A stretch of 64,000 nucleotides of DNA from an uncultured Actinomycetota bacterium (GCA_963844305.1 CAWJNT010000004.1:2956-66955); one strand, 5' to 3'. Shown: positions 1,401 through 59,952, numbered from the stretch's first letter. The notes: generated by a model from the sequence alone, not told the origin. Program-made: numbers and translations.

Positions 1401-1446
1401 GGTCGGGCGGATTCTCTCTGCCCATCCCTCATCCCCTGTGCCTGCG

Positions 1447-1989: not shown

Positions 1990-2107
1990 TCAACCCCCTC
2001 GAATTACATGTGGCAGACGCCACCAGTGCCGGAACCGGTCGTACGTCGCCCGGCGTCTCGAATTCGCCGATTGTGGCACAGCGCATCCGGTCCGCGCGCA
2101 TAACGGA

Positions 2108-3430
2108 CTAGGCAACCCAGTACCATGTGGAGAACTGGACTGTCAGGAGCGCCAGCAGCACGATCGACGGAATAAGCGCCAGCCTAAAGGAGACTCGTCG
2201 TTGCGTCAACAGTGCCAGCGCGATGAACAGTGGAAACATGACGATGAGAAAACGCGACATCGACATCAGCGGGTGGATCGTCGACGGGCTGAACAGCGGC
2301 AACAGGTAGAGCATGACGGGAAAGATCGCGTACTCAATCGGGAGCTTGATGAGGCAGTAGATCAGGAGAGGAATCGCCAGCAGCGCGAACGCGATATCCA
2401 GTGATTCGTACTCGGCGAAGCCGAAGCGGACGGTATGGGATGTCAGGGTCGTCCAGGTTGGCGATTCGATGAGTGCGCGCAGCCAGCCAAGGTCGAGTTG
2501 GTCGAAGGCCATCCTGAAGGTCGTCCAGGGCATCGCCTGCTCGCGTGCCCAGCCTTTCTGGGCATCGAGCGTAAGGAGCGGATCGCGGTAGGTGCGCCAG
2601 AGTGCGAACATATAGAGGAGCGGTCCAAGCCCTGGCAGGCCGACCGCTAGCCATGTCCGGGGCCAGCGGCGCGGGTCAACGCCGTGCCGCTTGAGGAAGA
2701 TGATCCCGAGCGGCACGACGAGCAGGACGCCGACGTTGCGGGTCAGCGCGGCCAGCAGTCCGGCCAGCCCGGCCCGCCACCACGTGCCGCCGGTCGCCCA
2801 ATAGTAGGCGAGCAGGCTGAAGAGCAGGAAGAACGATTCGCTGTAGACGGCCGACAAATAGAAGGCGGTCGGGAAGAATGCCAGCAGCCAGAGCGCCCGG
2901 TTCGCGACGGCATCACCCCACCCACGGCTGACGAGACGCCGGAAGACCACGAGAGCGAGGAAGAATGCGACGTTAGCGAGGATCAGTCCTGCCGTTTCGA
3001 CGCGGATGGCGAAGATATCGGCCAGGACCCGCATTGACCACGGATAGAGCGGCCAGAAGGCGGTCGATGCAGGATGGTAGTCGTAGCCTTCGGTGGCGAT
3101 CAGCGAGTACCAGAAGCCGTCCCAGTTGCGTAGCGGCTGGATGAAGAGTTCGCCGATGCCGTTGAGGTCGGGCAGGTACCAGCCGACGGCCGGAACGGTG
3201 TCCATCCGGCGGGCGTAGCGCGTGGCGAGTGCGGCAGAGCCGGCGACGACGATCCAGTGCAGGACGAAGACGAGCGCCGGTAGCGCAAGCTCCTGCTCGC
3301 GGGCGAACGTGCGCAGGGCAGCGAACGGCGTCCGAACGCCGGATCGGGATCGTGAGGCGTCGATTGTTGACGGTCGTGACGTCACATCGCGGTCCTTCCC
3401 ACCGGCGGTCTGTCGCGTGGAGCGTGCCAC
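2108..3430 (-). CDS. Polytopic GT-C mannosyltransferase, PIG-V/GPI-mannosyltransferase-2-like (start uncertain, possibly 3382)
   Basis: [45 protein letters not shown] motifs and many TM helices. Confidence 0.8.
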
Positions 3431-3525
3431 GCGATGCGCGTGCAGGCCAGCGATGCCCGCACCGGTGCTACAATGCCGATTCGGGAGGTGGGGTTACCCG
3501 CTGGCGACTGCGGAAGGTACGGCCA

Positions 3526-4331
3526 ATGGATCTTGGGCTGTCGGGAAAGGTTGCGATTGTCGCCGCCTCCAGCAAGGGACTTGGACGCGCCTGCGCGACC
3601 CAGCTCGCGCGCGAGGGCGCAACGGTCGTGATGTGTTCGCGCAACCAGGCGGCAATCGAAGCGGCGGCCAGCGATGCGCAGCGGGCGGCGATGAAGCCGA
3701 GAACGGCGGCAGTGCGCACGCCGTTGTTGCTGATGTGACATTGCCCGGCGACATTACGCGGCTGGTCGAGACGACGATCGAGCGCTTTGGGCGAGTGGAT
3801 GTCCTGATTGCCAACGCCGGTGGCCCACCTTCCGGGTCATTCGAGTCGTTCGACGAAGCGGCCTATCTCGATGCAATCAACCTCAATCTGATGAGCACGT
3901 TGCGCCTCTCGCGGGCAGTCGTTCCGCACATGAAAGAGCAGGGCGGCGGCTCGATCGTCAACATCACGTCGATTGCGGTCAAGCAGCCGCTGGATGGGCT
4001 GATCCTCTCCAACACGGCCCGGAGCGGCGTGATTGGTCTGGCCAAGAGCATGGCCAACGAGCTTGGCAAGTACAACATTCGGGTCAACAGCGTCGGACCG
4101 GGGCCGACGAAGACTGACCGAGTCCTGGATCTTGCGAAGCAACGTTCGGCTGCGCTCGGTGTGACGGTCCAGGAGGCGCTGGACCGCGATTGGACCGGCA
4201 TCCCGCTGGGGCGGCTCGGCGAACCAGAAGAGTTCGCCAACGTCGTCACCTTCCTGGCGTCACCGGCCGCGAGCTACGTGACCGGTGTGTTCATTCAGGT
4301 AGATGGTGGCATGTATCGAGGGCTTTTGTAG
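3526..4331 (+). CDS. SDR family oxidoreductase (one frameshift near 3680-3700)
   Basis: [50 protein letters not shown]. Confidence 0.85.
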
Positions 4332-4334
4332 CGG

Positions 4335-4458
4335 GTCAGTGTGTCAGCCAGTCAGTCGGTCAGCCTGAGAGGCCGAGTGTCAATCGCGATTGTCGCGACC
4401 AATTGACAGCCTGACTAACTGACACACTGACCGTCTGACTAACTGACAGGCTGATAGC
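4335..4458. repeat. Intergenic array of short GTCAG / CTGAC repeats in inverted arrangement
   Basis: gtcagtgtgtcag (4335-4347) is the exact reverse complement of ctgacacactgac (4419-4431); further gtcag copies on the left and ctgac/ctgat copies on the right. Confidence 0.75.
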
Positions 4459-4463
4459 TACCC

Positions 4464-5633
4464 GTGAAAATCCTGCTGGTTTCGCCGTTTGATTTTGGGC
4501 ACCAGGGTGGTGTCAATGAGCATATCGCACAGCTCGATCGCCAGTTTGTGGCGATGGGACATCAGACGCGGATTCTTGCGGCGACATCGTTGGAGACCGG
4601 CGAGGTGGACGACGGGCATCTGTACCAGCTTGGGATGGCTGTCCCGCTGCCCTCGAACGGGTCGACGGCGAGGATTACGTTCTCTCCGTTCGTGCTGGGG
4701 AAGGTCAAGGCGTTTCTGGACTCAGAAGAGTTCGACGTCATCCATCTCCATGAGCCGCTGACGCCGATGCTCTCGCTGGCGGCGCTGCTGCATTCGCGGA
4801 CGGTCAATGTCGGGACATTTCATGCGGCCCGCCCGTTCAACCTGCTCTACCACTACACCAAAGCCATTCTCGATATGTTCTTCAACAAGCTGGACGCGAA
4901 GATCGCCGTGTCTGAAGCGGCGCGCTCATTTGTGGACTCCTATTTTCCGGCCGAGTTCGACATCATCCCGAATGGCATCTCGCTGGATGACTACGGTCAG
5001 CGGGTCGAGCCGTTGCCGGAATTGATGGACGGGCGGCGCAACATCCTTTTCGTCGGTCGCTACAACGAACCCCGCAAGGGCTTCCGCTACCTCGTCCGGG
5101 CAATGCCGATGATCCGCGGCCAGTTTCCGGACGCGCGGCTGGTCGTGGTCGGCAACGGCGACCCGTCGCGCTACGAGCGCTTTCTGGAGCAGAACGGCGT
5201 CACCGACGTCATCTTCACCGGCTTCGTGCCATACGAGATGCTGCCGCGCTACTACGCGTCGGCCGATGTCTTCTGCGCGCCATCGACTGGACGCGAGTCA
5301 TTCGGGCTGATCCTGCTGGAGGGGATGGCGAGCGGTATTCCGGTCGTCGCGGCGTCGAACGCCGGCTATAGCGCGGTCCTGGAGAACGGGGTGACAGGCG
5401 TCCTGACTCCTCCGAAAGACGAGCATGCGCTGGCGATGGGCGTCGTCCGTGTCCTGGCCGACATTGAATTTCGCGAGCGGATCGTGACCAACGCATTAGA
5501 GCACGTCAAGCAGTTCGACTGGCCGGTCATCGCCGGACGGGTGATCGAGGTCTACGAGCGGGCGATCGCGACGAGCCAGGCAGGGCCGGCACAACGTCTC
5601 TGGCCGGTCGAGATCGCAGGGCGACGTGGTTAG
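4464..5633 (+). CDS. GT4 glycosyltransferase, PimA-like phosphatidylinositol mannosyltransferase
   Basis: SPFDFGHQGGV, HLHEP, GTFH, GRYNEPRKG and ESFGLILLEGMA resemble PimA motifs; adjacent to a CDP-alcohol phosphotransferase. Confidence 0.75.
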   Translation: MKILLVSPFDFGHQGGVNEHIAQLDRQFVAMGHQTRILAATSLETGEVDDGHLYQLGMAVPLPSNGSTARITFSPFVLGKVKAFLDSEEFDVIHLHEPLTPMLSLAALLHSRTVNVGTFHAARPFNLLYHYTKAILDMFFNKLDAKIAVSEAARSFVDSYFPAEFDIIPNGISLDDYGQRVEPLPELMDGRRNILFVGRYNEPRKGFRYLVRAMPMIRGQFPDARLVVVGNGDPSRYERFLEQNGVTDVIFTGFVPYEMLPRYYASADVFCAPSTGRESFGLILLEGMASGIPVVAASNAGYSAVLENGVTGVLTPPKDEHALAMGVVRVLADIEFRERIVTNALEHVKQFDWPVIAGRVIEVYERAIATSQAGPAQRLWPVEIAGRRG

Positions 5634-6221
5634 CACGCGTTTCGCCAACCGGGTCCGCGGCCGGCTGGACCGCTTGGGACGATCGTCGCGCGGACGCACC
5701 TGTCGCCGAACATGCTGACGGTGATCGGGCTGCTCCTGAACATTGGTGTTGCGGCCGTTATCGCGTCGGGCAATCTCGTGCTCGGTGGTGTGCTGGTACT
5801 GGTGGCGGGCGGGTTCGACGCCCTGGATGGCGCGGTGGCACGGGCGACCGGCCAGACCAGCACGTTCGGCGCGTTCCTCGACAGCACGATGGACCGCTAC
5901 TCGGAGGCGATCGTCTTCGCCGGATTGCTGATCTATCTGACAGAGACTGATGCCGGTACGGTTCCGATCCTGCTGACATATGCGACGATTGTCGGGTCGC
6001 TGATGATCTCGTACAGCCGCGCCAAGGCCGAGCAGATCGGGATCAAGGGCGATGTCGGGTTTGCTCAGCGGCTGGAGCGGGTCCTGATCCTCGCGTTCTT
6101 TCTCGTCATCTCCCAACCGGTCTGGGGACTCTGGATTCTGGCGGTCGCGACCCAGGTCACGGCCATCCACCGTGTCCTGCATGTCTGGAACGTGACCCGG
6201 CAGGGCGATATAAGCTCGTAG
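5626..6221 (+). CDS. pgsA: CDP-alcohol phosphatidyltransferase (PI/PIP synthase type); frameshift near 5670-5680
   Basis: LSPNMLT and DALDGAVARATGQTSTFGAFLDSTMDRYSE (DGxxAR..G...D...D signature); GTG start overlaps the GT4 stop. Confidence 0.8.
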
Positions 6222-6242
6222 CTCAAACGTACAGGGAGTACT

Positions 6243-7222
6243 GTGCAGAGTCAGGATAATGCCTCGGCGGCGCGAACATGCCTGATCCTGGCGCTCGTCC
6301 TCGCCGGATTCGTGCTGATCGCGTGTGTGATCGTGGCGCTCGGCTTCGTCGTCGACCTTGGTGGCGAAGATCCGAGGCCGGAGGACCAGCGCGGGACAGT
6401 CGTCGCCGATTCAGATGAGACACCGTTCCTGTTCACCGTTATCGATGTTGGGCAGGGTGCGTGTGTCGTGGTCGTCACGCCGGACGGGCGGACGCTGGTG
6501 GCGGATGCCGGGCGCTCGCAGGAACGCGTGCGGGAGATCGTGATCCCATACCTGCGCGAACAGGGCGTCGAGCGGATCGATTATCTGGTCGCGACCAACC
6601 CGGACCAGGACCATATCGGCGGGATGCCGGCCATCCTTGAAGAGATGGAGGTCGGCGCCTGGGTCGATCCGGTTGTCGAGACGACGAACCTGACCTACGC
6701 GGAGTCGCTTGAGATGGTCGATTCGCTGGGGATCGAGGCGATCCGAGCGCGGCGAGGCGGGACGCTCGATATGGGGCCGGAGGTGACGGCCGAGATCCTC
6801 TGGCCGGTCGATCCGCTGATGATGGATGGATCGCAGGAGAGCCGCAACAACAACAGCATCGTGATCCGGATAACGCATGAGGATGTGTCGTTTCTGATCA
6901 CCGGCGACATCGAAGAGCCGGCAGAGGAGGCGCTGGTCGAGGCGGATGAGGACGAACTGTTGCAGGCAGACGTGCTGGTCGTCCCGCATCATGGAAGCAA
7001 CACATCCAGCACCGCCCAGTTCCTGGATGCGGTCTCGCCGACGGTGGCGATCATTCCGGTCGGGCTGGACAACCAGTACGACCACCCGCGTGACGAGGTG
7101 ATCCAGCGGCTGCGCTTCCGCTCAATCCGGATCTATCGGACCGATCTGGACGGACGGTTGAGGTCCGGAGCAATGGCGACGAGTACCAGGTCCAGGTGCT
7201 TGGAACGGAGGACGCTCCTTGA
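6243..7222 (+). CDS. ComEC/Rec2-like metallo-beta-lactamase-fold hydrolase with N-terminal TM anchor; frameshift near 7155
   Basis: IDVGQG, TNPDQDHIGG, NNNSIV, TGDIE, VPHHGS, NQYDHP, YRTDLDG; shifted tail TVEVRSNG..EDAP ends at TGA 7220-7222. Confidence 0.8.
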
Positions 7223-7457
7223 GCCACGAACACCAGCGGATGACCGTCGACGAGATCGAACTGAACGCGAACAATGAGCGAGTCGCAGTCCTGATCGGCG
7301 ATGACGGCAGCCAGATCGTGATGCCGCTGACACTGCTGCCGGCCGGGACCAAGGCAGGAGACGTCCTGAACCTCTCACTCGCGCATGACAGCGATGAAAC
7401 GGAGCGGCGCCGGGAGCGGGTCGCGGGACTGCAAAGAAGCTCTTCGGAGACCGGTAG
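7219..7457 (+). CDS. DUF3006-family small protein (frameshift near 7435)
   Basis: TVDEIE..AVL..LPAGTKAGDVL..ETERRRERV..LQ(K)KLFGDR*; usual partner of ComEC-like MBL genes. Confidence 0.65.
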
Positions 7458-7603
7458 CACGGTTCGCGGTGTGCGATGGTGTCTGAACTTGATCGCCATT
7501 CGATACGATCATGCTCAACGCAGCAAATCGTGACAACTGCTCGCCGCAGCGCTAAGAATATCGTGAGGTGGGCTGTCGGGTGCTTGGGAAGAAAGGTGTC
7601 GAT

Positions 7604-8450
7604 ATGGATGCTCAGGCTCAGATCCGTGAACTGTTAGACGGCTTCGACGGGGAGGCGGCGTACCTGGCGCGGAATCTGGTGACCGGGGAGGAGTTCGGGT
7701 ATCGGCCCGAGCGGGTGATGCCGACGGCTTCGACGATCAAAATTGTTGTGCTGGCGGAGCTGTTCCGGCAGGTTGACGCTGGTGCGGTTGATCTGGATGC
7801 GACGGTCAAGATCCAGGCTGAAGACCGGCGCGGTGGGTCGGGCATCCTGAAGGATCTGTCGGCGGGAGTGGTTGCGACGGTGCGCGATCACGCGACGCTG
7901 ATGACAGCGCTGTCGGACAACACCTCGACGGCACTGCTGGTGCGGCTGCTCGGTAGGGGAGCGGATCCTGGAGTCGGCGCGTGAAAGGGGGATGACCGAT
8001 ACAAGCGCGGGGTTCGACAGGGTCGCGGGCGGCCGCGCCCGGGACTATGCAGCTAGCACACCGCGCGACCTGGCGCATCTGCTCGGGTTGATCGCGACCG
8101 ATGCGATCGTTTCACCTGCGGCGTGCCGGGAGATGCGCGACATTCTGGGGACCAGCAGTACCACGAGCAGATCGCGCGGATGCTGCCGTTCCATCAGTTC
8201 GCACGCGAGGGGTACGTCCATAGTGGACCGGTGGTGGTTCGCTCGAAGAGCGGGTTCATGGCCGACGACAGCGGGGCTGTGCGGGTCGACGCCGGGATCG
8301 TCGAGATCGCGGATGGGCCGCGTTGGGTGATCGCGCTGATGACCGAAGGTCACCCTGATCACCGCTTCCACCCGGACCATCCGGGGATGGTCCCTGAACG
8401 GCCGCATATCGAGAATTGTCTACGACGCGTGGGCGGGCGACGCAGCCTGA
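7604..8450 (+). CDS. Serine hydrolase, class A beta-lactamase-like fold, several frameshifts
   Basis: MPTASTIK (SxxK), LSDNT (SDN), SKSG (KTG-like) spread over three frames; no signal peptide. Confidence 0.75.
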
Positions 8451-8482
8451 GGTATTGGGGAATGAGGGAGGGTCACGAGAGA

Positions 8483-9000
8483 GTGATTGTCGAACGGACA
8501 GGTGAGGCGCACGAACTGGGTTAGCAGTTGACGGTCGTCGGGGCACGTGCTCGAAGCGGGTGATGTCGCTCCGGAATATACACTGGAGTGGATGAACCCG
8601 GCTGACGGATCGATGCAGCAGGTCAGTCTCGCGGATTCGACCGGCAGCGTTCGGCTGTTGAACGTGATCAACTCGATCGACACGCCGGTCTGCCATGTCG
8701 AGACGCGGAGCTGGGAGCGGCGCCGGGGCGAACCGCCGGAGGATGTGCACGTGTTCACGATCAGCATGGACCTGCCGTTCGCACAGGCACGTTGGCACAG
8801 CGCGGAAAAGGTCGGGCATGCGTCATTGTCGGCTCACAAGAACGAGCAGTTCGGTATCGATTACGGCGTGTTGCTGAAAGAGTGGCGATTGCTGCAACGT
8901 GCGGTGTTCGTCATTGACCGCCACGGGCGGATTGCCCACAGTGAGTACGTTGGCGATCAGATGTTGGAGCCGAATTACGACGTCGCGTTGGCGGCGGCTC
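8483..9000 (+). CDS. tpx: Thiol peroxidase (Tpx-type peroxiredoxin); TAG plus frameshift near 8522-8545; 3' end fused at the junction
   Basis: SIDTPVC (peroxidatic Cys), SMDLPFAQARW, LLQRAVFV, EPNYD. Confidence 0.8.
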
Positions 9001-9010
9001 GCCGACGGCG
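8990..9010. other. Junction between two different genomes (probable chimeric assembly join)
   Basis: The tpx frame loses its stop and runs into the antisense of the kinase; the kinase is cut off after its catalytic domain; base composition and indel density change abruptly. Confidence 0.75.
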
Positions 9011-10017
9011 ACGGCCTCGGCGCCGGTGTCGCCGAACGGATCGGCCGCAGTGTCCTCGCCCGGCTCGGGCTCGACCACCACGGGCACGCGCGGCATCAGG
9101 TCGGCCTCCAGCTCCTCGTCCTCGCGTACGCCGGCCGCGAGCGCCTGGCTGACCCGGTGCAGCTGGTGGAGCATCACCGCCGCGTCGGCCGGCCGCTGCT
9201 CGCGGTCGCGCGCGGTGGCTCGCGCGACGAGCGCGTCGACGTACCGGGGGATGCCGGGCGCCTTCGCCGACGGTGGGGGCACGTCTTCGTGCACGTGCTT
9301 GTACGCCACGTGGATCGGCGAGTCGCCCTCGTGCGGCTTCGCGCCGGTCAGGAGCTCGTAGAGCACCACCCCCATGGCGTAGACGTCGGCCCGGGCGTCG
9401 GCGCGCCCGTCGACGACCAGCTCGGGGGCGAGGTAGGAGACGGTGCCGATCAGGACGCCGCCGGTGGCGGTGTGCTGGGTGTCGGCGCTGACCGCCTTGG
9501 CGAGCCCGAAGTCGGCGACCTTGACCCGGCCGTCGTCGGCGATCAGGACGTTCTCGGGCTTCACGTCGCGGTGGATCAGGCCCGCGCGGTGCGCCGCCGC
9601 CAGCGCCGAGAGCACCGGCTCGAGGAAGGCGACCGCCTTCGGCGGGCTCATCGGGCTCTCCTTGCGGATCACGTCGCGCAGGGTGTGCCCCGGGACCATC
9701 TCCATGGCGAGGTAGACGGTGCCGTCCTCGTCGCCCTGGTCGTAGACGGCCACCACGTTGGGGTGGGAGAGCCGGGCGGCGGCGCGGGCCTCGCGCACGA
9801 ATCGCGCGGCGAACTCGTCGTCGTCGCCGAGGCCGGGGTGCATCACCTTGACCGCGACCGCCCGGTCGAGCCGGATGTCGGTGGCCTCGTAGACGCTGGC
9901 CATCCCGCCGCGCGCGATCCGCGACCCGATCCGGTAGCGACCGTCCAGCAGACGGCCGTTCAAGGGGTCGCTCGTGCCGGCAGCGTCACCCGTCTGGGCG
10001 TGCTTGTCCTGCTGCAC
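9000..10017 (-). CDS. pknL: Hanks-type Ser/Thr protein kinase, PknL-like, 3' truncated at the junction
   Basis: GRYRIGSRIARGGMASVY, VAVK, HRDVKPEN, DFG, YLAPE; divergent Rv2175c-like neighbour; no TM or PASTA part before the junction. Confidence 0.75.
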
Positions 10018-17977: not shown

Positions 17978-18259
17978 CTACTCCTCGGTCGTCGTCCACG
18001 GTTTCCAGTCGGGATCGCGGGCCTCATGGGGTCGCGGCGGGCGCGTCCTGGTCCGGTCCTCGGGGTGCACGAAGCCGCGCGACAGGTAACGCTGCTGGCC
18101 CTCGATCAGGCTGATCCCGTTCGGCCCGCTGATCGCCGCGGGCTCTGAGTCGTCGTCCTCCCAGAAGCAGACCGCGCACACCTCGTAGGCCCCGGGGCCC
18201 TCACGCAGGGTGCGGTACCCGCAGCAGGGACAGGCGACGCGTTCGGGCATGGCGCCCAT
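17978..18259 (-). CDS. CPCC-type cysteine-rich protein
   Basis: ACPCCGYRTL..YEVCAVCFWEDD..GPNGISLIEGQQRY. Confidence 0.8.
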   Translation of the reverse strand: MGAMPERVACPCCGYRTLREGPGAYEVCAVCFWEDDDSEPAAISGPNGISLIEGQQRYLSRGFVHPEDRTRTRPPRPHEARDPDWKPWTTTEE

Positions 18260-18314: not shown

Positions 18315-18370
18315 TTGACGTCCTGTCGGCGGCGCGGTGTAGCGTTCTCGTTGTTCGAACAGATGTTCGA
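18315..18370 (+). promoter_or_regulatory. Sigma70-type promoter with a LexA (SOS) box
   Basis: TTGACG 18315-18320, TAGCGT 18340-18345, perfect actinobacterial SOS box TCGAAC-AGAT-GTTCGA 18355-18370. Confidence 0.8.
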
Positions 18371-18495
18371 TCCGGTCCGGCGGAGACGACCTCGACCCCC
18401 GTCTCCGCCGGGCGGCCGGTCCGGTCGCGAGCGCCGAGGCAGAGCCATCCGCAGGGGTCATCGGCAGGGGTCGAGCGATGCTGGGAGAGGAACAC

Positions 18496-18867
18496 GTGAG
18501 GCGGTACGACGACCCCGTCGAGGTGCGCAGGGGGCTGGTGACCGGGATCGAGGGTCCCGAGCAGTTCCTCTGGCGCGGGCGCTTGTGGAAGGTGCGCGCG
18601 GTGCTCGCGCACTGGGTGGAGACCGGGCCCTGGTGGCAGTCGTCCGGGGTGCGGGCGGTGATCGGGTCCGACGACGCCGCGCACGCCGGTCCCGCCGCCA
18701 CGCCCCCGTCGACGCCGTCGACGCCGTCGACGCCGTCGCCCGACCTGCTCGGCGAGCGGGAGCTGTGGCGGGTCGAGGCCGGCCGGGGCGGCGACACCGA
18801 CGGAGTCTTCGACCTGTCCTTCGACTGGAACGACGGCCACTGGCAGCTCATCGGCTGCGAGGACTGA
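18496..18867 (+). CDS. DUF6504-like protein resembling the ImuB C-terminal domain
   Basis: MRRYDDPVEV, PEQFLWRGRLWKV..HWVETGPWW, RELWRVEA, GVFDLSFD..WQLIGCED; GGAGAGG RBS; first gene after the SOS box. Confidence 0.75.
   Translation: MRRYDDPVEVRRGLVTGIEGPEQFLWRGRLWKVRAVLAHWVETGPWWQSSGVRAVIGSDDAAHAGPAATPPSTPSTPSTPSPDLLGERELWRVEAGRGGDTDGVFDLSFDWNDGHWQLIGCED
18706..18738 (+). repeat. In-frame 9-bp tandem repeat (ccgtcgacg x3 plus partial; PST-PST-PST-PS)
   Basis: Read directly from the sequence. Confidence 0.85.
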
Positions 18868-18879
18868 GGAGGTGCCCCG

Positions 18880-19335
18880 ATGAACCCCCACGCCCTGCCC
18901 GCCACCACCCACTCCTACCTCGCGCGCGCCGCAGAGTCGCTCAGCGAGGCGATCAACGCCACCGACGTGCCGAGCCGCTACGCCTGCGCCCACGTCGCCG
19001 CGCTCCGGTCCGCCGCCGCCCTGCTGGCCGCCCGTGCCCATCCGGCGCCGGCGCGGCGCCGGCGACAGAAGAACGCCTGGGTGCTGCTCGCCGAGGTCGC
19101 GCCCGAGCTGGCGGAGTGGGCGCGCTTCTTCGCCGCGGGGGCCAACAAGCGGGCCGCGGCCGAGGCCGGCTCGACCCGCGCGGTCACCGACCGCGAGGCC
19201 GACGACCTGGTCCGCGACGCCGACAGGTTCCTCGGAGTCGTCGAGCAGGCGCTCGGCCTGGTGCCACACCTGCCGTTCACGGGGCGCGTGGCGGCCGCCC
19301 GCCCGGCCACGGGGGGCCGGGCGGGCGTGGCGTGA
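18880..19335 (+). CDS. SAV_6107-family HEPN-like domain protein
   Basis: RYACAHVAALRSAAALLAARA, NAWVLLAEVAPELAEWARFFAAGANKRAAAEAG, READDLVRDA.RFL. Confidence 0.8.
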   Translation: MNPHALPATTHSYLARAAESLSEAINATDVPSRYACAHVAALRSAAALLAARAHPAPARRRRQKNAWVLLAEVAPELAEWARFFAAGANKRAAAEAGSTRAVTDREADDLVRDADRFLGVVEQALGLVPHLPFTGRVAAARPATGGRAGVA

Positions 19336-19444
19336 CCCGCCAGCGACGTACACCGCGACGAAGACAAGGGATTTCCACGATGCCGCGTGAGCCGGGTGTC
19401 GCTAGGTTGCGGGAGTCGTTCCCGCCTCCAGATCGGACTCCTCG

Positions 19445-20620
19445 ATGTCACGCCGTCTCGGGCTGCGTCGCCGTCACGCGACGCAGGTGCTGTCCCTGCT
19501 CCTGCTCGTCCCGTTGGCGGTGCTCGCGCCGGCCACCGCGCTTCCGCCCACCACCACCCTCGCCGCGCACGCCGCCGCCACCCCCATCTCCGTCGCGTCG
19601 GCGCGCGCCACCCAGGACGGCTCGTCGGCCACCGTGCGCGGGTACGTCGTCGGCCAGCCGACCTCGTCGACCACGGTCGTCACCAGCGGCTTCCCCAACG
19701 ACTTCGCGCTGGCGCTCGCCGACACGGCCGGCACCACCGACACCAGCCGGATGCTCTACGTCCAGATCCCCAGCGCGTTCCGGTCGTCGTGGGGACTGCA
19801 GTCCAACCCCGGCCTCATGGGCCGCCAGATCGATGTCACCGGCACGCTGTCGGCGTACTTCTCCCGACCCGGGCTGACCTCCAGCAGCGCCTTCGCGTTC
19901 GCCGGCGGTGGGGGAGACCCGGGTGGCGGTGACCCCGACGGCTACTACGACGACGCCATCGGCAAGACCGGGTCGCAGCTCGAGGCCGCGCTCCACGACA
20001 TCATCTCCACCGGCGACACCCCGATCTCCTACGACGCCGTGTGGAACGCGCTCAAGGTGACCGACCAGGATCCCGCCAACAGCGGCAACGTGATCGCGCT
20101 CTACAGCGGGTTCTCGATGGCGAAAGCCAACTTCGGCGGCGGCGTCGACCAGTGGAACCGCGAGCACGTGTGGGCGCAGTCCCACGGCGACTTCGGCACC
20201 TCCACGGGTCCCGGCACCGACCTCCACCACCTGCGGCCCGAGGACGTCACCGTCAACTCCGCGCGCGGCAACCTCGACTTCGACAACGGCGGCACCCAGA
20301 ACTCAGAGGCCCCCGGCAACTACGCCGACTCCAACTCCTGGGAGCCACGAGACGCCGTCAAGGGCGACGTGGCGCGGATGGTGTTCTACATGTCGGTCCG
20401 CTACGAGGGCGACGACGGCTTCCCCGACCTCGAGGCCAACGACGTGGCCGGCAACGGCTCGGTGCCGCGTCTCGGCCGGCTCTCGGTGCTGCTGCAGTGG
20501 AACGCCGAGGACCCGCCCGACGCGTTCGAGATGCGCCGCAACGACGTCATCTACGAGACCTACCAGCACAACCGGAACCCGTTCATCGACCACCCGGAGT
20601 GGGCCGACGCGATCTGGTGA
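19445..20620 (+). CDS. Secreted endonuclease I / Bsn-like nuclease with N-terminal OB-fold-like domain
   Basis: Arg-rich signal peptide; TVRGYVVG..NDFALALAD; WNREHVWAQSHG, DLHHLRPED..NSARGN, KGDVARMVFYMSVRY, HNRNPFIDHP. Confidence 0.85.
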   Translation: MSRRLGLRRRHATQVLSLLLLVPLAVLAPATALPPTTTLAAHAAATPISVASARATQDGSSATVRGYVVGQPTSSTTVVTSGFPNDFALALADTAGTTDTSRMLYVQIPSAFRSSWGLQSNPGLMGRQIDVTGTLSAYFSRPGLTSSSAFAFAGGGGDPGGGDPDGYYDDAIGKTGSQLEAALHDIISTGDTPISYDAVWNALKVTDQDPANSGNVIALYSGFSMAKANFGGGVDQWNREHVWAQSHGDFGTSTGPGTDLHHLRPEDVTVNSARGNLDFDNGGTQNSEAPGNYADSNSWEPRDAVKGDVARMVFYMSVRYEGDDGFPDLEANDVAGNGSVPRLGRLSVLLQWNAEDPPDAFEMRRNDVIYETYQHNRNPFIDHPEWADAIW

Positions 20621-20628
20621 GACCGCGG

Positions 20629-20696
20629 TGGCCGAATCCGTCGGGCGGGGGTAACGTGGAATCTGTTCGAACACATGTTCGAACAGATTCCACGTT
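20629..20696 (+). promoter_or_regulatory. dnaE2 promoter; LexA box embedded in a perfect 44-bp palindrome
   Basis: TGGCCG-17 nt-TAACGT (20629-20657); 21-bp arms 20653-20673 and 20676-20696; TCGAAC-ACAT-GTTCGA at 20667-20682. Confidence 0.75.
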
Positions 20697-20716
20697 CGTC
20701 CACCTCAGGGGGTGTC

Positions 20717-23700
20717 GTGCCGGACCCGTTCGTCCATCTCCACGTGGCCTCCGGCTACTCCCTGCAGTACGGCGCCTCCCACCCCCACACGCTGGTCGAG
20801 CGGGCCGCCGAGCAGGAGATGGACACCCTCGCGCTGACCGACCGCGACGGCACCTACGGCGCGGTGAAGTTCGCCAAGGCATGCCTGATGGCCGGGATCC
20901 GCCCGGTGCTCGGCGTCGACCTCGCCTACCGCCAGCCGGGCGGTGAGGGTCTGTCGAGACCCATCACCTCCACCCGCACCCCCGTCCGCGGTGGCGCCTT
21001 CCGCGACCCGCGGCTGCCGCGCGCCACCTTCCTGGCGTCGGGCCGGGCGGGCTGGGCGGCGGTGTGCCGGCTGGTCTCGGCCACCCACCTCGACGGCGAG
21101 CGGGGGAGCCCGGTCGCCGACCTCGACGTGCTCGCACCCCACCTCGCGTCCGGTGACGTGCTGGTGCTGCTCGGCCCCGGCTCCGCGGTGGGCGAGGCGG
21201 CCACCCGGCGCCGCGACGACCTCGCGCTCGAGGCGCTGGCTCCCTGGCGCGAGCTGGTGCCCGCCGAGAACCTCTTCGTCGAGCTGGTCTCCCACCGGCT
21301 CCCGGGAGCCGGCGGCGACTGGGGTCCCGGCACCTCCCCCCACGCCGCCCGGATGGCCGGCGTCGCCCGCCGGGCCGGACTCGGCACGGTCCTCACCAAC
21401 GCGGTCCGCTACGCCGACCGGCTCGACGCCCCGACCGTCGACGTCCTCGACGCCGCCCGCCGGCTGGTCGCCCTCGACCGCCGCCATGTCGACCGGGGCA
21501 ACGCCGAGGGCTTCCTCAAGTCCGGCAAGCAGATGCAGGAGATCGCCGAGGAGATCTGCCGGCTGGCCGGGCTGGCCGGCGACACCGAGCGCGAGGCTCG
21601 CCACCTCCTGGCCCGCACCCGCGCCGTCGCCGACCGGTGCGCCCTCGACCCGCGCGCCGACCTCGGGCTGGGCGAGGTGCACTTCCCCGAGTTCGAGCTG
21701 CTGGTCTCGACAAGCTCGACCGACGTCGGTCGAGCTGTCGAGACCCCGACCGCCGACGTCCTGCTCCGCGCCCGCTGCGAAGGCGCGATCGGCGACCGCT
21801 ACGGCTCGGCGCCGCGCCAGCGGATCTGGAAGCGCCTCGACGACGAGCTCCAGATGATCGGCCACCTCGGGTACGCGTCGTACTTCCTCACCGTCGCCGA
21901 CGTCACCGACCTGGTCCGCGACATGGGCGTGCGCTGCGCGGCCCGCGGCTCCGGCGCCGGCAGCCTGGTCAACTACCTCCTCGGCGTCTCGGGGGTCGAG
22001 CCGCTGCGCCACAACCTGCTCATGGAGCGGTTCCTCTCGCCGCTGCGGCAGGCGCTGCCCGACATCGACGTCGACGTCGAGTCGGCCCGGCGGCTCGAGG
22101 TCTACGAGGCGATCCTCGACAAGTACGGCGGCGAGCGATGCGTCTGCGTCTCGATGATGGACAGCTACCGCGTCCGGCACGCCGTGCGCGACGTCGGCGC
22201 CGCCCTCGGCATGCCGCCGGGCGAGACCGACGCCATCGCCAAGGCGTTCCCCCACATCCGTGCCCGCGACGCCCGGGTCGCGCTGCGCGAGCTGCCCGAG
22301 CTGCGGGCCAGCGGGCTGGCGGAGGAGCGGCTCGACCTGATGTTCCGGCTGGTGGAGCGGCTCGACGGGCTGCCCCGCCACATCGCCGTCCACCCGTGCG
22401 GGGTGCTGCTCTCCGATGCCACCCTGCTCGACCGCACGCCGGTGGAGGCGAGCTACGCCGGGTTCCCGATGAGCCAGTTCGACAAGGACGACGTCGAGGA
22501 CCTCGGGCTGCTCAAGCTCGACGTGCTCGGCATCCGCATGCAGTCCTCGATGGCCCACGCGGTCGCCGAGATCCAGCGGGTCGACGGGGTGGAGATCGAC
22601 CTCGACGACGAGGACCAGGTGCCGTTCGACGACCCGGCCACCTACGACCTGATCTCCTCGGCCCGCACCCTCGGCATGTTCCAGATCGAGTCGCCCGGCC
22701 AGCGCGAGCTGGTCGGCAAGTCCGGCATCGAGAGCTTCGAGGACATCATCACCGACATCTCGCTGTTCCGGCCCGGGCCGGTCAAGAGCGACATGGTCAC
22801 GCCGTACCTCGACGCCAAGCAGGGCTGGAAGATCCCGAGCTACCTCCACGACGACCTGCGTCCGATCCTCGAGGGCACCCACGGCGTGGTCGTCTTCCAC
22901 GAGCAGGTGATCGAGATCGTCGCGTTCTTCGCCGGCATCTCCTACGCCGAGGCCGACGAGTGCCGCCGCTCGCTCGGCGACGTCGACGGCATGGCGCAGA
23001 CCAAGCTGTGGTTCTATCCCCGGCTCCTCGGGCGCGGCTACCCGCTGCCGGTCGTCGAGCGCCTCTGGAAGGTGCTCGAGGCGTTCGCGTCGTTCGGGTT
23101 CTGCAAGGCCCACGCCGCGGCGTTCGCGCTGCCGACCTTCCAGTCCGCCTGGCTCAAGACGCACTGGCCGGCGCACTTCCTGGCCGGGGTGCTCACCCAC
23201 GACCCCGGCATGTACCCCAAGCGGCTGATCCTCGACGACGCCCGCCAGTTCGGCATCGCCGTGCTCGGGCTCGACGTCAACGCCTCCGGCAAGGAGTACG
23301 CCGTGGAGAAGGTCGGCGAGGAAGGCGAGTACGGCATCCGGCTCGCGCTGGCCGAGGTGAAGGGGATCAGCGAGGCCGAGGTGGACCGGATCGTCGCCGC
23401 CCGCCCGTTCCACTCGCTCACCGACCTCTGGCACCGCGCCCAGGTCTCCCGGCCCGTGCTCGAGCGGCTGGTCCTGGCCGGGGCGTTCGACTCGGTCTAC
23501 GGCATCGGCTCCTCGGTCGGCGTCCGCCCGCGCCACCAGGTGACCCGGCGCGACCTGCTGCTCCAGGTGGCCGAGCTCGACCGGCACGCCCGGGCGGTGG
23601 AGCGGGCCGGCCGGGGTCGCGGGCTGGCCGGCCGCAAGGCCTGGCAGGTCGCGGGACAGCGGGCCACCACCCCGGCCCAGACCCGCGCCGCCGACGCCGC

Positions 23701-24664
23701 CGCCCGCAACAGCACCGACCCCCGCGACCGCGCCGACGCACCCGAGCTCGAACGCCACCCGCTCGCCGACCAGGGCGTGTGGGCGAAGGCCGCCGCCCAG
23801 TCGAAGGCCACCAGGACACCCCGGCCGGTGACCTCGGTCCAGCTCACCCTCGACCTCGGCGACGAACCCGGCGAGGGCCCCGGCGAGCTGGCCAGCGGCC
23901 TGCCCGAGATGAGCGACGAGGAGCGGATGAAGGCCGAGCTGGAGATCCTCGGCCTCGACGCCAGCCGCCACGTCGTCGACACCTACGCCCCGTTCTTCGA
24001 CGCGATCGGCGTCACCCGCAGCAAGGACCTCCTGTCCCGGCGCAGCAAGGCCGAGCTGCTGGTGGCGGGCGTCAAGGTCGCCACCCAGACCCCGCCGATC
24101 CGGTCCGGCCGCCGGGTCATCTTCCTCACCCTCGACGACGCCACCGGACCGGTCGACGCGACGTTCTTCGAGGACGTCCAGGGTCCCTACGCCGCCACGG
24201 TCTTCCACTCCTGGCTGCTGGTGGTGCGCGGCGAGCTGCGGCGTACCGGCCGGCGCGGGGTCTCCCTCCGCGCGACCGGCTGCTGGGCGCTGCCCGACCT
24301 GTACGCCGTCTGGAAGGCCGCACCCACCTCGGCCGACGGCGTCCGCATGGTGCGCGAGCTGATGGCCGTGGTCCCCGAGGGCTTTGCCGACATGGGGGCG
24401 GGCGTGGGGGAGGAGGCCGTCGCCGGCGCCGCGGAGTCGCGGTCCACCCGGCCGGTGATGAGCAAGCCCGCCCCGGATCGGCAGAGCCCGACGCAGCAGG
24501 ACCCGGCCGAGAAGGGCGCCGCGGGCGGCATGGGCCGGCGGCGGGTGCTGGTGCACTCCAGCGGGTTCAAGATGTCCCCCTACTCCGACATCAAGCCGGC
24601 CGGCGAGGACACCAAGGACGTCGCCCGCAAGCTGTGGCACCGCAGCCCGGGGAGCGCGGGATGA
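20717..24664 (+). CDS. dnaE2: Second Pol III alpha, error-prone DnaE2 type
   Basis: RGSGAGS, LPDIDVD, KLDVLG, SLFRPGP, FGFCKAHA, OB fold VIFLTLDDATG, C-terminal KLWHRSPGSAG; PHP ligands degenerate; AGGGGG RBS before GTG 20717. Confidence 0.88.
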   Translation: MPDPFVHLHVASGYSLQYGASHPHTLVERAAEQEMDTLALTDRDGTYGAVKFAKACLMAGIRPVLGVDLAYRQPGGEGLSRPITSTRTPVRGGAFRDPRLPRATFLASGRAGWAAVCRLVSATHLDGERGSPVADLDVLAPHLASGDVLVLLGPGSAVGEAATRRRDDLALEALAPWRELVPAENLFVELVSHRLPGAGGDWGPGTSPHAARMAGVARRAGLGTVLTNAVRYADRLDAPTVDVLDAARRLVALDRRHVDRGNAEGFLKSGKQMQEIAEEICRLAGLAGDTEREARHLLARTRAVADRCALDPRADLGLGEVHFPEFELLVSTSSTDVGRAVETPTADVLLRARCEGAIGDRYGSAPRQRIWKRLDDELQMIGHLGYASYFLTVADVTDLVRDMGVRCAARGSGAGSLVNYLLGVSGVEPLRHNLLMERFLSPLRQALPDIDVDVESARRLEVYEAILDKYGGERCVCVSMMDSYRVRHAVRDVGAALGMPPGETDAIAKAFPHIRARDARVALRELPELRASGLAEERLDLMFRLVERLDGLPRHIAVHPCGVLLSDATLLDRTPVEASYAGFPMSQFDKDDVEDLGLLKLDVLGIRMQSSMAHAVAEIQRVDGVEIDLDDEDQVPFDDPATYDLISSARTLGMFQIESPGQRELVGKSGIESFEDIITDISLFRPGPVKSDMVTPYLDAKQGWKIPSYLHDDLRPILEGTHGVVVFHEQVIEIVAFFAGISYAEADECRRSLGDVDGMAQTKLWFYPRLLGRGYPLPVVERLWKVLEAFASFGFCKAHAAAFALPTFQSAWLKTHWPAHFLAGVLTHDPGMYPKRLILDDARQFGIAVLGLDVNASGKEYAVEKVGEEGEYGIRLALAEVKGISEAEVDRIVAARPFHSLTDLWHRAQVSRPVLERLVLAGAFDSVYGIGSSVGVRPRHQVTRRDLLLQVAELDRHARAVERAGRGRGLAGRKAWQVAGQRATTPAQTRAADAAARNSTDPRDRADAPELERHPLADQGVWAKAAAQSKATRTPRPVTSVQLTLDLGDEPGEGPGELASGLPEMSDEERMKAELEILGLDASRHVVDTYAPFFDAIGVTRSKDLLSRRSKAELLVAGVKVATQTPPIRSGRRVIFLTLDDATGPVDATFFEDVQGPYAATVFHSWLLVVRGELRRTGRRGVSLRATGCWALPDLYAVWKAAPTSADGVRMVRELMAVVPEGFADMGAGVGEEAVAGAAESRSTRPVMSKPAPDRQSPTQQDPAEKGAAGGMGRRRVLVHSSGFKMSPYSDIKPAGEDTKDVARKLWHRSPGSAG
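21703..21745. repeat. REP-like hairpin inserted in frame within dnaE2
   Basis: ggtctcgacaagctcgaccgac / gtcggtcgagctgtcgagacc: inverted repeat with a single 1-nt bulge; encodes VSTSSTDVGRAVET. Confidence 0.7.
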
Positions 24665-24683
24665 TCTCGCTAGGGTTGCCTCC

Positions 24684-25445
24684 ATGCCGCCCTCAGGCTC
24701 CAGCAGCGTTCCCGCCACCGAGCGCCGCAGCGCCGCCCGCACCGCCGTGGTCTGGGAGGCCCTGCGCCCGGTCCTCGACGGCCTGGTCGACGAGCAGGGC
24801 GGCGACGTCCTCGACATCGGCGGCGGCACCGGCGGCTTCGCGGTCCGGGTCGCCGAGCTCGGTCACCGGGTCCGGGTGGTCGACCCCAGCCCGGACGCCC
24901 TCGCCGCCCTCGACCGGCGTGCCCGCGAGAGCGGTGTCGCCGGCGTCGCCGAGCGGGTCACCGGCCAGCAGGGCGACCTGTCCACCCTGCTCGACGTCGC
25001 CGACCCGGCCAGCACCGACCTGGTGCTGTGCCACGGCGTGCTCGAGGTCGTCGACGACCCCGCCGCCGCGCTCGCCACGATCGCCGAGGTGCTGCGTCCC
25101 GGCGGCGTGCTCAGCCTGCTCGTCGCCCAGCGGCACTCCGCGGTGGTGGCCCGGGCCATGGCCGGCCACTTCCAGCAGGCGAAGGCGCTGCTCGACTCCA
25201 CCGACCCCCACGGCCGGGCCGGGCGCCGGTTCACCCGCGAGGAGCTCGAGGCGCTGCTCCCGGCCGCCGGCCTCACCCCCACCGCGGTGCACGCCATCCG
25301 GGTCTTCGCCGACCTCGTGCCCGGCTCCCTGCTCGACCTCGAGCCCGGCGCCACCGCCGCCCTGGTCGAGCTCGAGCAGGCCGTCGCCGAGCGCCCCGAG
25401 TACCTCCCGCTCGCCGCGCAGATGCACGTCATCGCCAAGCGCTGA
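24684..25445 (+). CDS. Class I SAM-dependent methyltransferase
   Basis: VLDIGGGTGG, VVDPSPDAL, DLVLCHGVLEVVDDP, LRPGGVLSL; TAGGGT -10 lies 7 nt before the ATG. Confidence 0.88.
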   Translation: MPPSGSSSVPATERRSAARTAVVWEALRPVLDGLVDEQGGDVLDIGGGTGGFAVRVAELGHRVRVVDPSPDALAALDRRARESGVAGVAERVTGQQGDLSTLLDVADPASTDLVLCHGVLEVVDDPAAALATIAEVLRPGGVLSLLVAQRHSAVVARAMAGHFQQAKALLDSTDPHGRAGRRFTREELEALLPAAGLTPTAVHAIRVFADLVPGSLLDLEPGATAALVELEQAVAERPEYLPLAAQMHVIAKR

Positions 25446-25465
25446 CCCACCCTCCGGCGGCCGCC

Positions 25466-26665
25466 ATGGCTGACCGGTCCCGGCACTGCCCGATCCTGCA
25501 CGTCGACATGGACGCGTTCTATGCAGCCGTGGCCGTACGCGAGCGCCCCGACCTGCTCGACGTGCCCCTCGTGATCGGCGGCGGGTACCGCGGCGTGGTG
25601 CTGTGCGCCAACTACCACGCCCGCGCGTACGGCGTCCGGTCCGGGATCCCGATGACCCGCGCCCGGCGGATGTGCCCGCAGCTGGTGGTGGTCCCGCCCG
25701 ACTACGACACCTTCGAGCAGGTGTCGACCTCGGTGCGCGAGACCTTCCGCCGGGTGACGCCGCAGGTCGAGGTGCTCTCGCTCGACGAGGCGTTCCTCGA
25801 CGTGCGCGGGTCGGTCCGGCGGCTGGGCACACCCCTCGAGATCGCCGAGCGGCTGCGCGCCGTCATCCACGACGAGCAGGGCATCACCTGCTCGGTCGGG
25901 GTGGCGGCCTCGGTGTCGGTGGCCAAGCTCGCCAGCAGGCGGGCCAAGCCCGACGGCGTCATCGTCGTACCCCCCGAGACCATCACCTCGTTCCTCCACC
26001 CGCTGGACGTCGGCGAGCTGTGGGGAGTGGGGGAGAAGACCCAGACGATGCTGAACCGGCTCGGCCTGGTCACCGTCGGCGACGTCGCCCACACCCCGCT
26101 GCGCACCCTCCAGCGCGCGGTCGGCGACCACCTCGGCGGCCATCTCCACGAGCTGGCCTGGGGCACCGACCGGCGCGAGGTCGCCGCGGGGCGCGGTTTC
26201 TTCGGCCGGGGCGAGGGCGAGCCCGACAAGTCGATGGGTGCCGACGAGACCTTCGGCCGCGACACCGACGACCGCACCGTCATCCTGCGCGAGCTGCTGA
26301 AGCTCACCGCCAAGGTCACCGGCCGGATGCGGGTGGCCGGGGTGGCCGGCCGCACCATCACGATCAAGGTCCGCTTCGCCGACTTCACCACCATCACCCG
26401 CTCCCGGACCATCCCCGAGGCGACCGACGTCACCCAGGAGATCTACCGCACCGCCACCGCCCTGTACGACGCCCTCGGGCTGCAGCGCGCCCGGATCCGG
26501 CTGGTCGGGGTCCGGGTCGAGGGGCTCGTGCCCCGCACGACGGTGCACCGCCAGCTGGTGCTGGGGGAGCCCGAACACGGCTGGTCCGACGCCGACCGCG
26601 CGGTCGACCGGGCCACGCTGCGGTTCGGGTCTGCCGCCGTACGCCCGGCCAGCCTGCTCACCTGA
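25466..26665 (+). CDS. dinB: DNA polymerase IV (Y-family)
   Basis: HVDMDAFYA, CANYHARAYGVRSG, SLDEAFLD, AKLAS..AKPDG, LWGVG, RLVGV; clamp-motif-like QLVL; tail RFGSAAVRPASLL. Confidence 0.92.
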   Translation: MADRSRHCPILHVDMDAFYAAVAVRERPDLLDVPLVIGGGYRGVVLCANYHARAYGVRSGIPMTRARRMCPQLVVVPPDYDTFEQVSTSVRETFRRVTPQVEVLSLDEAFLDVRGSVRRLGTPLEIAERLRAVIHDEQGITCSVGVAASVSVAKLASRRAKPDGVIVVPPETITSFLHPLDVGELWGVGEKTQTMLNRLGLVTVGDVAHTPLRTLQRAVGDHLGGHLHELAWGTDRREVAAGRGFFGRGEGEPDKSMGADETFGRDTDDRTVILRELLKLTAKVTGRMRVAGVAGRTITIKVRFADFTTITRSRTIPEATDVTQEIYRTATALYDALGLQRARIRLVGVRVEGLVPRTTVHRQLVLGEPEHGWSDADRAVDRATLRFGSAAVRPASLLT

Positions 26666-56125: not shown

Positions 56126-56138
56126 CCGTTCGACGCTA
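56118..56138 (-). promoter_or_regulatory. LexA box overlapping the leaderless start of the DUF222-HNH gene
   Basis: TCGAAC-ACCC-GTTCGA 56118-56133; minus-strand TAGCGT (56138-56133) lies 7 nt before GTG 56125. Confidence 0.8.

Positions 56139-56394: not shown

Positions 56395-59948
<3,554 letters not shown>

Positions 59949-59952
<4 letters not shown>

Follow-up and report, generated by a model that had tools for sequence, protein, structure and literature searches.

Described DnaE2 systems and the locus under study

DnaE2-dependent mutagenesis drives drug resistance in mycobacteria. Here, we analyzed a putative DnaE2 locus carried on a 64,000-nucleotide stretch of DNA from an uncultured Actinomycetota bacterium (GCA_963844305.1, CAWJNT010000004.1:2956-66955; the whole stretch is hereafter the window, and positions are counted from its first letter). 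In this locus (positions 18,315 to 26,665), genes for a second DNA polymerase III (Pol III) alpha subunit (DnaE2), a Y-family polymerase (DinB), a DUF6504 protein, a HEPN protein and a methyltransferase lie behind predicted LexA (SOS) boxes. Among the closest described systems, the C-terminal domain of ImuB (ImuB-C) was defined by Aravind (2013), with solo copies noted to adjoin DinB or DnaE2, and in the ImuA-ImuB-DnaE2 complex this domain has been modelled to hold the PHP domain of DnaE2. Timinskas and Venclovas (NAR 2019) reported Imu variants without ImuA and proposed that a RecA-NT motif carried by the Y-family protein is bound by RecA. More recently, DnaE2 proteins were divided into groups A, B and X, the last two of which are found where the genome has neither imuA nor imuB, and an actinobacteria-only DnaE2B-PolY-ImuB-C-RecA type was described with AlphaFold models termed a "good tetramer" (NAR 2026; PMC12926913). 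Supplementary file 4 of that study prints the system proteins of Nocardioides euryhalodurans, Janibacter indicus, Kineococcus radiotolerans and Ornithinimicrobium pratense, and Tessaracoccus lapidicaptus is also listed under this type; the AlphaFold models cover N. euryhalodurans, Janibacter, Kineococcus, Ornithinimicrobium and Tessaracoccus. Finally, an SOS-inducible dnaE2-dinB2 operon without imuAB is known in Streptomyces (Tsai 2012), and both LexA binding and a 30-fold induction by mitomycin C have been reported for the Streptomyces dnaE2-dinP (dinB2) operon (Stratton 2022).

Our analysis indicated that the locus is probably a LexA-repressed SOS translesion/mutagenesis operon of the DnaE2B-PolY-ImuB-C-RecA type. 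The HEPN protein and the methyltransferase, as members of this operon, are the part that appears undescribed.

Gene content and predicted products

The window has the G+C content of actinobacterial DNA (~72-74%), its nearest named relatives are Nocardioides species, and soil metagenome assemblies hold contigs that are near-identical to it. The locus comprises the following features:

18340-18345, + strand: -10-like hexamer TAGCGT, 9 nt upstream of box 1
18355-18370, no strand: LexA (SOS) box 1, TCGAACAGATGTTCGA, a perfect palindrome and the predicted operator of the imuB-C/HEPN unit
18478-18867, + strand: DUF6504 protein / free-standing ImuB-C, 129 amino acids (aa) (PF20114, E = 1.8e-18)
18706-18738, + strand: 9-bp tandem repeat CCGTCGACG, 3.7 copies with 100% matches, encoding PSTPSTPST in a disordered loop of ImuB-C
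18880-19335, + strand: HEPN_SAV_6107 protein, 151 aa (PF18726, E = 1.6e-35), with GGAGG ahead of the start
19445-20620, + strand: secreted endonuclease I, 391 aa (Pfam DUF6359 and Endonuclease_1), with an N-terminal signal-like sequence
20652-20657, + strand: -10-like hexamer TAACGT, 9 nt upstream of box 2, the same spacing as at box 1
20667-20682, no strand: LexA (SOS) box 2, TCGAACACATGTTCGA, perfect, the predicted operator of the dnaE2-methyltransferase-dinB unit
20717-24664 (open reading frame (ORF) from 20675), + strand: DnaE2B, ~1315 aa from GTG 20717 or 1329 aa from the ORF start, with PHP, NTPase, finger, HhH and OB domains
24684-25445, + strand: class I S-adenosylmethionine (SAM) methyltransferase, 253 aa (Pfam), CmoM/SmtA-like
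25466-26665, + strand: DinB / PolY-core, 399 aa (Pfam IMS and IMS_C), start ATG 25466

An earlier note on this DNA had read five co-oriented genes here, for DUF6504, HEPN, Pol III alpha, methyltransferase and DinB proteins, and Pfam agreed for all of them, but the endonuclease I gene between HEPN and dnaE2 had been missed. The four catalytic motifs that it called intact (PDIDVD, KLDVLG, DMDAF and SLDE) were all found in the translations, and a pattern scan recovered both of its perfect LexA boxes (18355 and 20667) together with a third one at 56118 that it did not mention. Likewise, its statement that each box lies just downstream of a -10 element was borne out by the TAnnnT hexamers listed above, but a strict sigma-70 scan, which is uninformative at 73% G+C, gave no full promoter at either box.

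The intergenic gaps are of 12 nt (imuB-C/HEPN), 19 nt (dnaE2/methyltransferase) and 20 nt (methyltransferase/dinB). The ATG of the dnaE2 ORF (20675) falls within LexA box 2, and the likely start is GTG 20717, located behind AGGGGG and in agreement with the N-termini of the orthologues. The endonuclease I gene starts 110 nt after HEPN, and transcription from the LexA-controlled promoter may run on into it; a terminator scan, also uninformative at 73% G+C, detected none after HEPN, and Rfam gave no match over the whole window.

First, we analyzed the two polymerases. The window DnaE2 harbors the PDIDVD (position 448), KLDVLG (600) and QLTLDL (1042) motifs, the last of which is a possible clamp motif. 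Its N-terminus is near-identical to that of N. euryhalodurans DnaE2B (QBR90836), and the protein scores under both NCBIfam cut-offs (DnaE1 and error-prone). Its identity is 60-79% with DnaE2 proteins from orthologous loci, 45-49% with those of Streptomyces/Nonomuraea, 33% with Micromonospora DnaE2A and 30% with the DnaE1 of the window itself. On its sequence, we assign it to group B, and not to group A or DnaE1. The DinB protein carries the DMDAF (14), SLDE (105), QLVLG (363) and RFG (386) motifs and is predicted, by its intact DMDAF and SLDE, to be a catalytically active Y-family polymerase. Pol IV models score it at 314-365 bits (Pol IV subfamily, 364.6 against a cut-off of 367), and its putative clamp motif, QLVLGE, resembles QLVLGL, the clamp motif of E. 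coli Pol IV. DinB is the orthologue of N. euryhalodurans PolY-core (QBR90838); the N-termini of the two match almost residue for residue, and its C-terminal tail, DRAVDRATLRFGSAAVRPASLL, is nearly the same as in that orthologue, which was modelled with RecA by its authors. A tblastn search with ImuA, ImuB, RecA and DinB found no Y-family or RecA-like gene besides DinB in the 64 kb.

The DUF6504 protein is identified as a free-standing ImuB-C on the strength of its orthologue, because supplementary file 4 of the NAR 2026 study (PMC12926913) prints the N. euryhalodurans protein (QBR94233), to which it is 72.5% identical, as ImuB-C; it is 34-41% identical to the three other published ImuB-C proteins. 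In addition, PF20114 is present in all relatives of the published Janibacter ImuB-C, and it matches residues 428-498 (the last 70 residues, E = 1.1e-3) of a 503-aa Rhizobium ImuB taken from a plasmid imuA-imuB-dnaE2 locus. An hhalign comparison with a narrow DUF6504 alignment matched residues 428-458 of the same protein (E = 1.9e-3), weakly but in the correct place, over a WRGR..KV....WW core, and gave no match to Micromonospora ImuB. A PDB sequence search with DUF6504 retrieved nothing meaningful, and the AlphaFold2 model of the window protein shows an all-beta fold of six strands, in agreement with the published description of ImuB-C. As DUF6504 corresponds to the ImuB C-terminal domain, the cassette is thus a split or rearranged Imu system and not an ImuB-independent one.

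The PST loop of this protein (predicted local distance difference test (pLDDT) score < 50) varies in length, as near-identical metagenome strains encode ImuB-C proteins of 129, 126 or 123 aa depending on the PST repeat. There are three exact copies of the repeat unit in the window, two in loci L001 and L005 and none in L002, where the PST stretch is two repeat units shorter. A separate 13-mer tandem repeat, CATCCGCAGGGGT (2.1 copies), lies at 18446-18472 in the 5' leader, directly before the imuB-C start codon.

LexA boxes and conservation of the operon

The sequence TCGAAC-N4-GTTCGA is the established actinobacterial LexA consensus, and boxes 1 and 2 match it as predicted operators of the actinobacterial LexA regulon. 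Allowing two or fewer mismatches, the window holds 15 such sites where 3.5 would be expected, a count that was not reached in any of 100 shuffles.

To compare the locus among genomes, we performed a scan anchored on HEPN (narrow alignment), which yielded 80 species-level loci, all of them from Nocardioidaceae and thus outside Streptomycetales, the home of SAV_6107. Gene content was counted in the 69 loci that are complete downstream:

imuB-C - HEPN - dnaE2 - methyltransferase - dinB: 46 of 69 loci (four also with endonuclease I; L031 ends at a contig edge before dinB)
imuB-C - HEPN - methyltransferase - dinB, without dnaE2: 8 of 69 loci
HEPN - methyltransferase - dinB: 5 of 69 loci
HEPN - methyltransferase: 9 of 69 loci
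HEPN alone: 1 of 69 loci

HEPN, being the search anchor, is present in all 80 loci, and the methyltransferase in 68 of the 69. Both genes stay behind a LexA box in Nocardioidaceae where ImuB-C, DnaE2 or DinB is absent, and they are the most constant predicted LexA-controlled genes of the locus. Ahead of the first gene, 75 of the 80 loci have a perfect box and 4 more have a box with one mismatch; this box is the sole conserved upstream element, within a footprint in which a T-rich -10-like position is also kept.

Among the 46 five-gene loci, the dnaE2 start follows the HEPN stop at a median of ~3 nt. Where dnaE2 lies more than 150 nt from HEPN, a second perfect box precedes it in 7 of 9 loci, versus 1 of 45 in which the two genes are contiguous (Fisher p = 1.6e-6, for loci that are related and so not fully independent). 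The insert varies among the split loci with a second box (endonuclease I, an AMP-binding enzyme, or an NTP-transferase plus a glycosyltransferase), and the window is itself of this split type. The recurrence of a second LexA box where the operon is split argues that damage-dependent control of dnaE2-methyltransferase-dinB is under selection. Endonuclease I occupies the HEPN/dnaE2 junction in only a few Nocardioidaceae loci (L046, L055, L058 and L084), and it does not belong to the core of the operon, which it splits as an insertion specific to some lineages.

The other junction inserts, the AMP-binding enzyme and the NTP-transferase plus glycosyltransferase, were seen in L011 (10426-11970) and L028 (10466-12972). 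In the metagenomic locus L096, which has a PIN/RHH toxin-antitoxin pair at this junction (8463-9137), a second box was not found. A different arrangement was observed in a Nocardioides metagenome-assembled genome (MAG; L081, 2674-10384), where the dnaE2-methyltransferase-dinB block is inverted and divergent from imuB-C-HEPN, with two perfect LexA boxes (9350 and 9453) in the common intergenic region.

HEPN and the methyltransferase are conserved within the operon across Propionibacteriales and Micrococcales, and the LexA box is also found upstream in Micrococcales and other lineages. Janibacter sp. GS2, Arsenicicoccus dermatophilus and another MAG have the five-gene order, the upstream box and a HEPN gene that overlaps dnaE2; this gene order accounts for the gaps of one accession seen in the published lists. 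The array lacks the methyltransferase in two Mycobacteriales-like MAG loci and one JGI contig. In Micromonospora maritima (L089, 8001-15735), the order is HEPN - ImuA' - ImuB - DnaE2A - small ORF - methyltransferase, in which the canonical cassette is represented by MT3502_N (ImuA') and a 573-aa ImuB; the methyltransferase is 55% identical to that of the window, and a LexA box with one mismatch lies ~350 nt upstream of HEPN. The chromosomal site of the locus is constant across orders, between idsA/MTHFR and DUF3040/TgpA.

The HEPN protein and the methyltransferase

The HEPN_SAV_6107 family comprises 965 clusters at 50% identity and corresponds to HEPN-M (SAV_6107) of Anantharaman (2013), who listed the Rx4-6H motif as not conserved in it. 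The model of the window protein (pLDDT 91) is a helical bundle with best PDB matches to the HEPN proteins 2hsb, 1wol, 4nqf and 3o10, from which the protein is predicted to have the HEPN four-helix fold; a search of its profile against PDB sequences gave nothing meaningful. Among 76 diverse members, the canonical Rx4-6H RNase motif is absent from the last helix, where READDLxRD is found with no histidine, while R33-x4-H38 (in helix 2), W67, R91 and G97 are invariant or nearly so. No DUF6504-HEPN fusions were found, and ten long HEPN representatives contain the HEPN domain alone.

We also considered whether HEPN is a common phage or plasmid gene, a candidate that was dropped as it had no match in the plasmid and reference phage collections. 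Two metagenomic HEPN contexts away from polymerase genes look mobile (L094, 8001-8486; L095, 1258-1722): one HEPN gene lies within ~25 small co-oriented ORFs without a Pfam match, and the other adjoins phage portal, protease and capsid genes. A search with defence-system models returned only a weak PDC-M05B match and a generic methyltransferase match.

The methyltransferase is similar over its full length to CmoM (SmtA), the tRNA cmo5U34 methyltransferase, with E = 9e-22 across residues 16-252 against the PDB structures 8joz/4htf, yet it scores 98.7 bits with the CmoM model, whose equivalog cut-off is 366. In a literature search, neither the HEPN protein, the methyltransferase nor DUF6504 was linked by name to this mutasome system.

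Other features of the window

Outside the locus, three further features were recorded:

17978-18259, - strand: small gene for a Cys-rich CPCC-domain protein, divergent from imuB-C
56118-56133: third perfect TCGAAC-N4-GTTCGA box, between 54795-56033 (-) and 56395-59952 (+)
56395-59952, + strand: replicative dnaE1

Box 1 lies in the intergenic region common to imuB-C and the CPCC gene, 96 nt from the CPCC start, and a CPCC gene occupies this position in none of the 80 related loci. The third box is 85 nt upstream of a divergent gene for a 412-aa HNH endonuclease and 262 nt upstream of dnaE1. Mycobacterial LexA targets include HNH/REP13E12-type genes, and box 3 is more likely to control the HNH gene than dnaE1. 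The G+C content falls to 0.62-0.64 in the first 8 kb (1-8000), against ~0.72-0.75 elsewhere, and is 0.67-0.68 around 50-53 and 56-60 kb; these stretches might be acquired DNA.

Interpretation and rival explanations

The sequence and its comparison among genomes support the predicted LexA operators, the operon structure, the identities of the parts and the orthology to the catalogued system; the mechanism set out here draws on homology and on the published AlphaFold models. The ancestral layout would be a single LexA box ahead of one transcription unit, imuB-C - HEPN - dnaE2B - methyltransferase - dinB; in the window, endonuclease I lies between HEPN and dnaE2, and dnaE2-methyltransferase-dinB has a second box of its own. 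DNA damage would activate RecA and lead to LexA self-cleavage, and the loss of LexA would open both promoters. The active DinB would then dock on the beta clamp via QLVLGE and on RecA via its RecA-NT-like tail, while the ImuB-C beta-barrel would bridge to the DnaE2B PHP domain, as the ImuB C-terminus does in the ImuA'-ImuB-DnaE2 model, so that one or both polymerases could copy past lesions at low fidelity. The co-transcribed HEPN protein and CmoM-like methyltransferase may assist the polymerases or serve a separate, probably RNA-directed, SOS function.

Several points weigh against this DnaE2B-PolY-ImuB-C-RecA reading, and some of them speak for the view that the locus is a cluster of independent SOS genes and not one machine. 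According to this alternative, DinB would act alone as Pol IV, DnaE2B with ImuB-C would be a separate and possibly non-mutagenic polymerase, and HEPN with the methyltransferase would form an RNA/tRNA-directed SOS module that uses the same promoter by coincidence, at a syntenic location close to the dcw cluster. The LexA box is kept in arrays that lack dnaE2 or imuB-C and in those that consist of HEPN-methyltransferase only. The genes behave as separable modules (46, 8, 5, 9 and 1 of the 69 loci), and therefore their five products do not have to make up a single machine. Nonomuraea has only ImuB-C-DnaE2B, HEPN also occurs outside the polymerase context, the nearest characterised relative of the methyltransferase is a tRNA enzyme, and the chromosomal site is constant across orders. 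Moreover, no part in mutagenesis or in surviving UV could be detected for the related DnaE2B of S. coelicolor, where deletion of dnaE2 gave no phenotype while that of dinB2 did (Tsai 2012). The complex proposed for this type rests on AlphaFold models from one group, a local alignment of the DinB tail with the RecA N-terminus was not above shuffles and is not significant alone, and the RecA, LexA and beta clamp genes are absent from the window. Against independence, HEPN and the methyltransferase alternate with the polymerase genes in an order that is the same across taxonomic orders, with overlaps or near-zero gaps, the same two genes bracket the canonical cassette in Micromonospora, and the four-protein AlphaFold models were rated good. 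On balance, we regard this alternative as unlikely, if far from negligible.

Two other explanations carry less weight. An Imu-independent mutasome, in which DUF6504 and HEPN are novel factors that replace ImuA and ImuB, would agree with the window having no gene that resembles imuA or a full-length imuB and with the fact that the literature gives HEPN no role here, but it is improbable given that DUF6504 corresponds to the ImuB C-terminal domain, that the published model gives the role of ImuA to RecA through the RecA-NT tail of PolY, and that HEPN does not replace ImuA' and ImuB, because Micromonospora has all three. That the boxes are chance palindromes in front of constitutive genes is hardly credible: the strict sigma-70 scan, which gave no promoter at either box, speaks for it, but no shuffle reaches the observed count, the upstream box is perfect in nearly all loci while its flanks are unconserved, the second box arises specifically with the split operon, and the sequence is the actinobacterial LexA consensus, with related Streptomyces boxes that bind LexA.

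For the DnaE2B-PolY-ImuB-C-RecA operon, the conclusions of the earlier note can thus be narrowed. Its observation that the window has no imuA or imuB held in that tblastn found no ImuA-like gene and no full-length dead ImuB, but the DUF6504 protein itself corresponds to the ImuB C-terminal domain. Its alternative SOS mutasome likewise stands as a LexA-boxed DnaE2 paired with a DinB of intact catalytic motifs, with ImuB-C in place of an uncharacterised accessory protein. A synteny survey of the kind that it suggested recovered the five-gene array in Nocardioidaceae and Micrococcales, but in Micromonospora HEPN and the methyltransferase flank imuA'-imuB-dnaE2. Its description of the system as under-described is not supported to the extent that it claimed, as the type is catalogued (NAR 2026; PMC12926913) and SOS/LexA control was shown for the Streptomyces relative in 2012 and 2022. 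The pairing of C- and Y-family polymerases in an SOS mutasome that lacks imuA/imuB is already published; as to the four published components, the window brings nothing new, and what is left as new is the HEPN/methyltransferase core and how the second LexA box behaves.

It is possible, although doubtful, that HEPN and the methyltransferase have a direct role with the polymerases; the main alternative is an SOS function of their own, which may be RNA-directed. Equally tentative is the broader suggestion that HEPN and the CmoM-like methyltransferase are overlooked partners or regulators of both kinds of DnaE2 mutasome (DnaE2B/ImuB-C/PolY and ImuA'-ImuB-DnaE2A). Under the same proposal, and with the same reserve, HEPN could be made in step with DnaE2 via translational coupling, and the HEPN-methyltransferase pair could be the ancestral, most persistent LexA-controlled core; by analogy with the pairing of HEPN proteins with minimal nucleotidyltransferases (MNT), HEPN might bind the Pol-beta-like palm of DnaE2. 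If it is true that HEPN or the methyltransferase modulates translesion synthesis, present mutasome models are incomplete. In many Actinobacteria, a LexA operon of five genes, and not a set of four proteins, is the natural unit, and two of the operon's members, HEPN and the methyltransferase, persist more than the polymerases do.

Comparison with known systems

The window HEPN protein shares the four-helix fold with HEPN-MNT toxin-antitoxin and HEPN RNase proteins (template modelling (TM) scores of 0.5-0.75 to 2hsb, 1wol, 4nqf and 7bxo), but unlike these it has neither an MNT partner nor Rx4-6H in the last helix.

As in the DnaE2B-ImuB-C dimer type (Arthrobacter alpinus; Nonomuraea gerenzanensis, L097), ImuB-C occurs in the locus of a DnaE2B, which it directly adjoins in that type. 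In contrast to the window, the dimer type lacks PolY, HEPN and the methyltransferase, and no perfect LexA box was found in 20 kb of the Nonomuraea locus.

With the Streptomyces dnaE2-dinB2 system (DnaE2B-iPolY-RecA), the window shares the LexA box, a dnaE2 gene followed by a Y-family gene and the absence of imuAB, and no annotated DnaE2 found in the plasmid collection is closer than those of this group, at 45-49% identity. However, the Y-family partner in Streptomyces is truncated or inactive (333 aa with a weak IMS match, E = 0.016, in the plasmid locus L008), whereas the window DinB is full-length and predicted to be active. The L008 cluster is without ImuB-C, HEPN or methyltransferase. An inactive scDinB2-like PolY fused to or overlapping dnaE2, which defines the iPolY arrangement, is not seen in the window, where the methyltransferase gene lies between dnaE2 and dinB.

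The Mycobacterium/Caulobacter ImuA(ImuA')-ImuB-DnaE2 system resembles the window in its SOS control and in combining DnaE2 with a Y-family protein that has a clamp motif and with an ImuB-C module. It is defined by an inactive, RecA-like ImuA/ImuA' and a dead full-length ImuB. The window has neither of these: ImuA is missing, the catalytic motifs of the Y-family partner are intact, ImuB-C is a separate protein of 129 aa, and DnaE2 is assigned to group B.

Finally, the window shares with the DnaE2B-PolY-ImuB-C-RecA type an orthologous DnaE2B, a predicted active PolY-core, whose tail is nearly that of the orthologue modelled with RecA, and a free-standing ImuB-C. The published account of this type covers four proteins, without HEPN, the methyltransferase or the LexA box architecture, whereas HEPN and the methyltransferase sit between the four in most genomes, and in the window the operon is in addition split by endonuclease I, with a second box before dnaE2.

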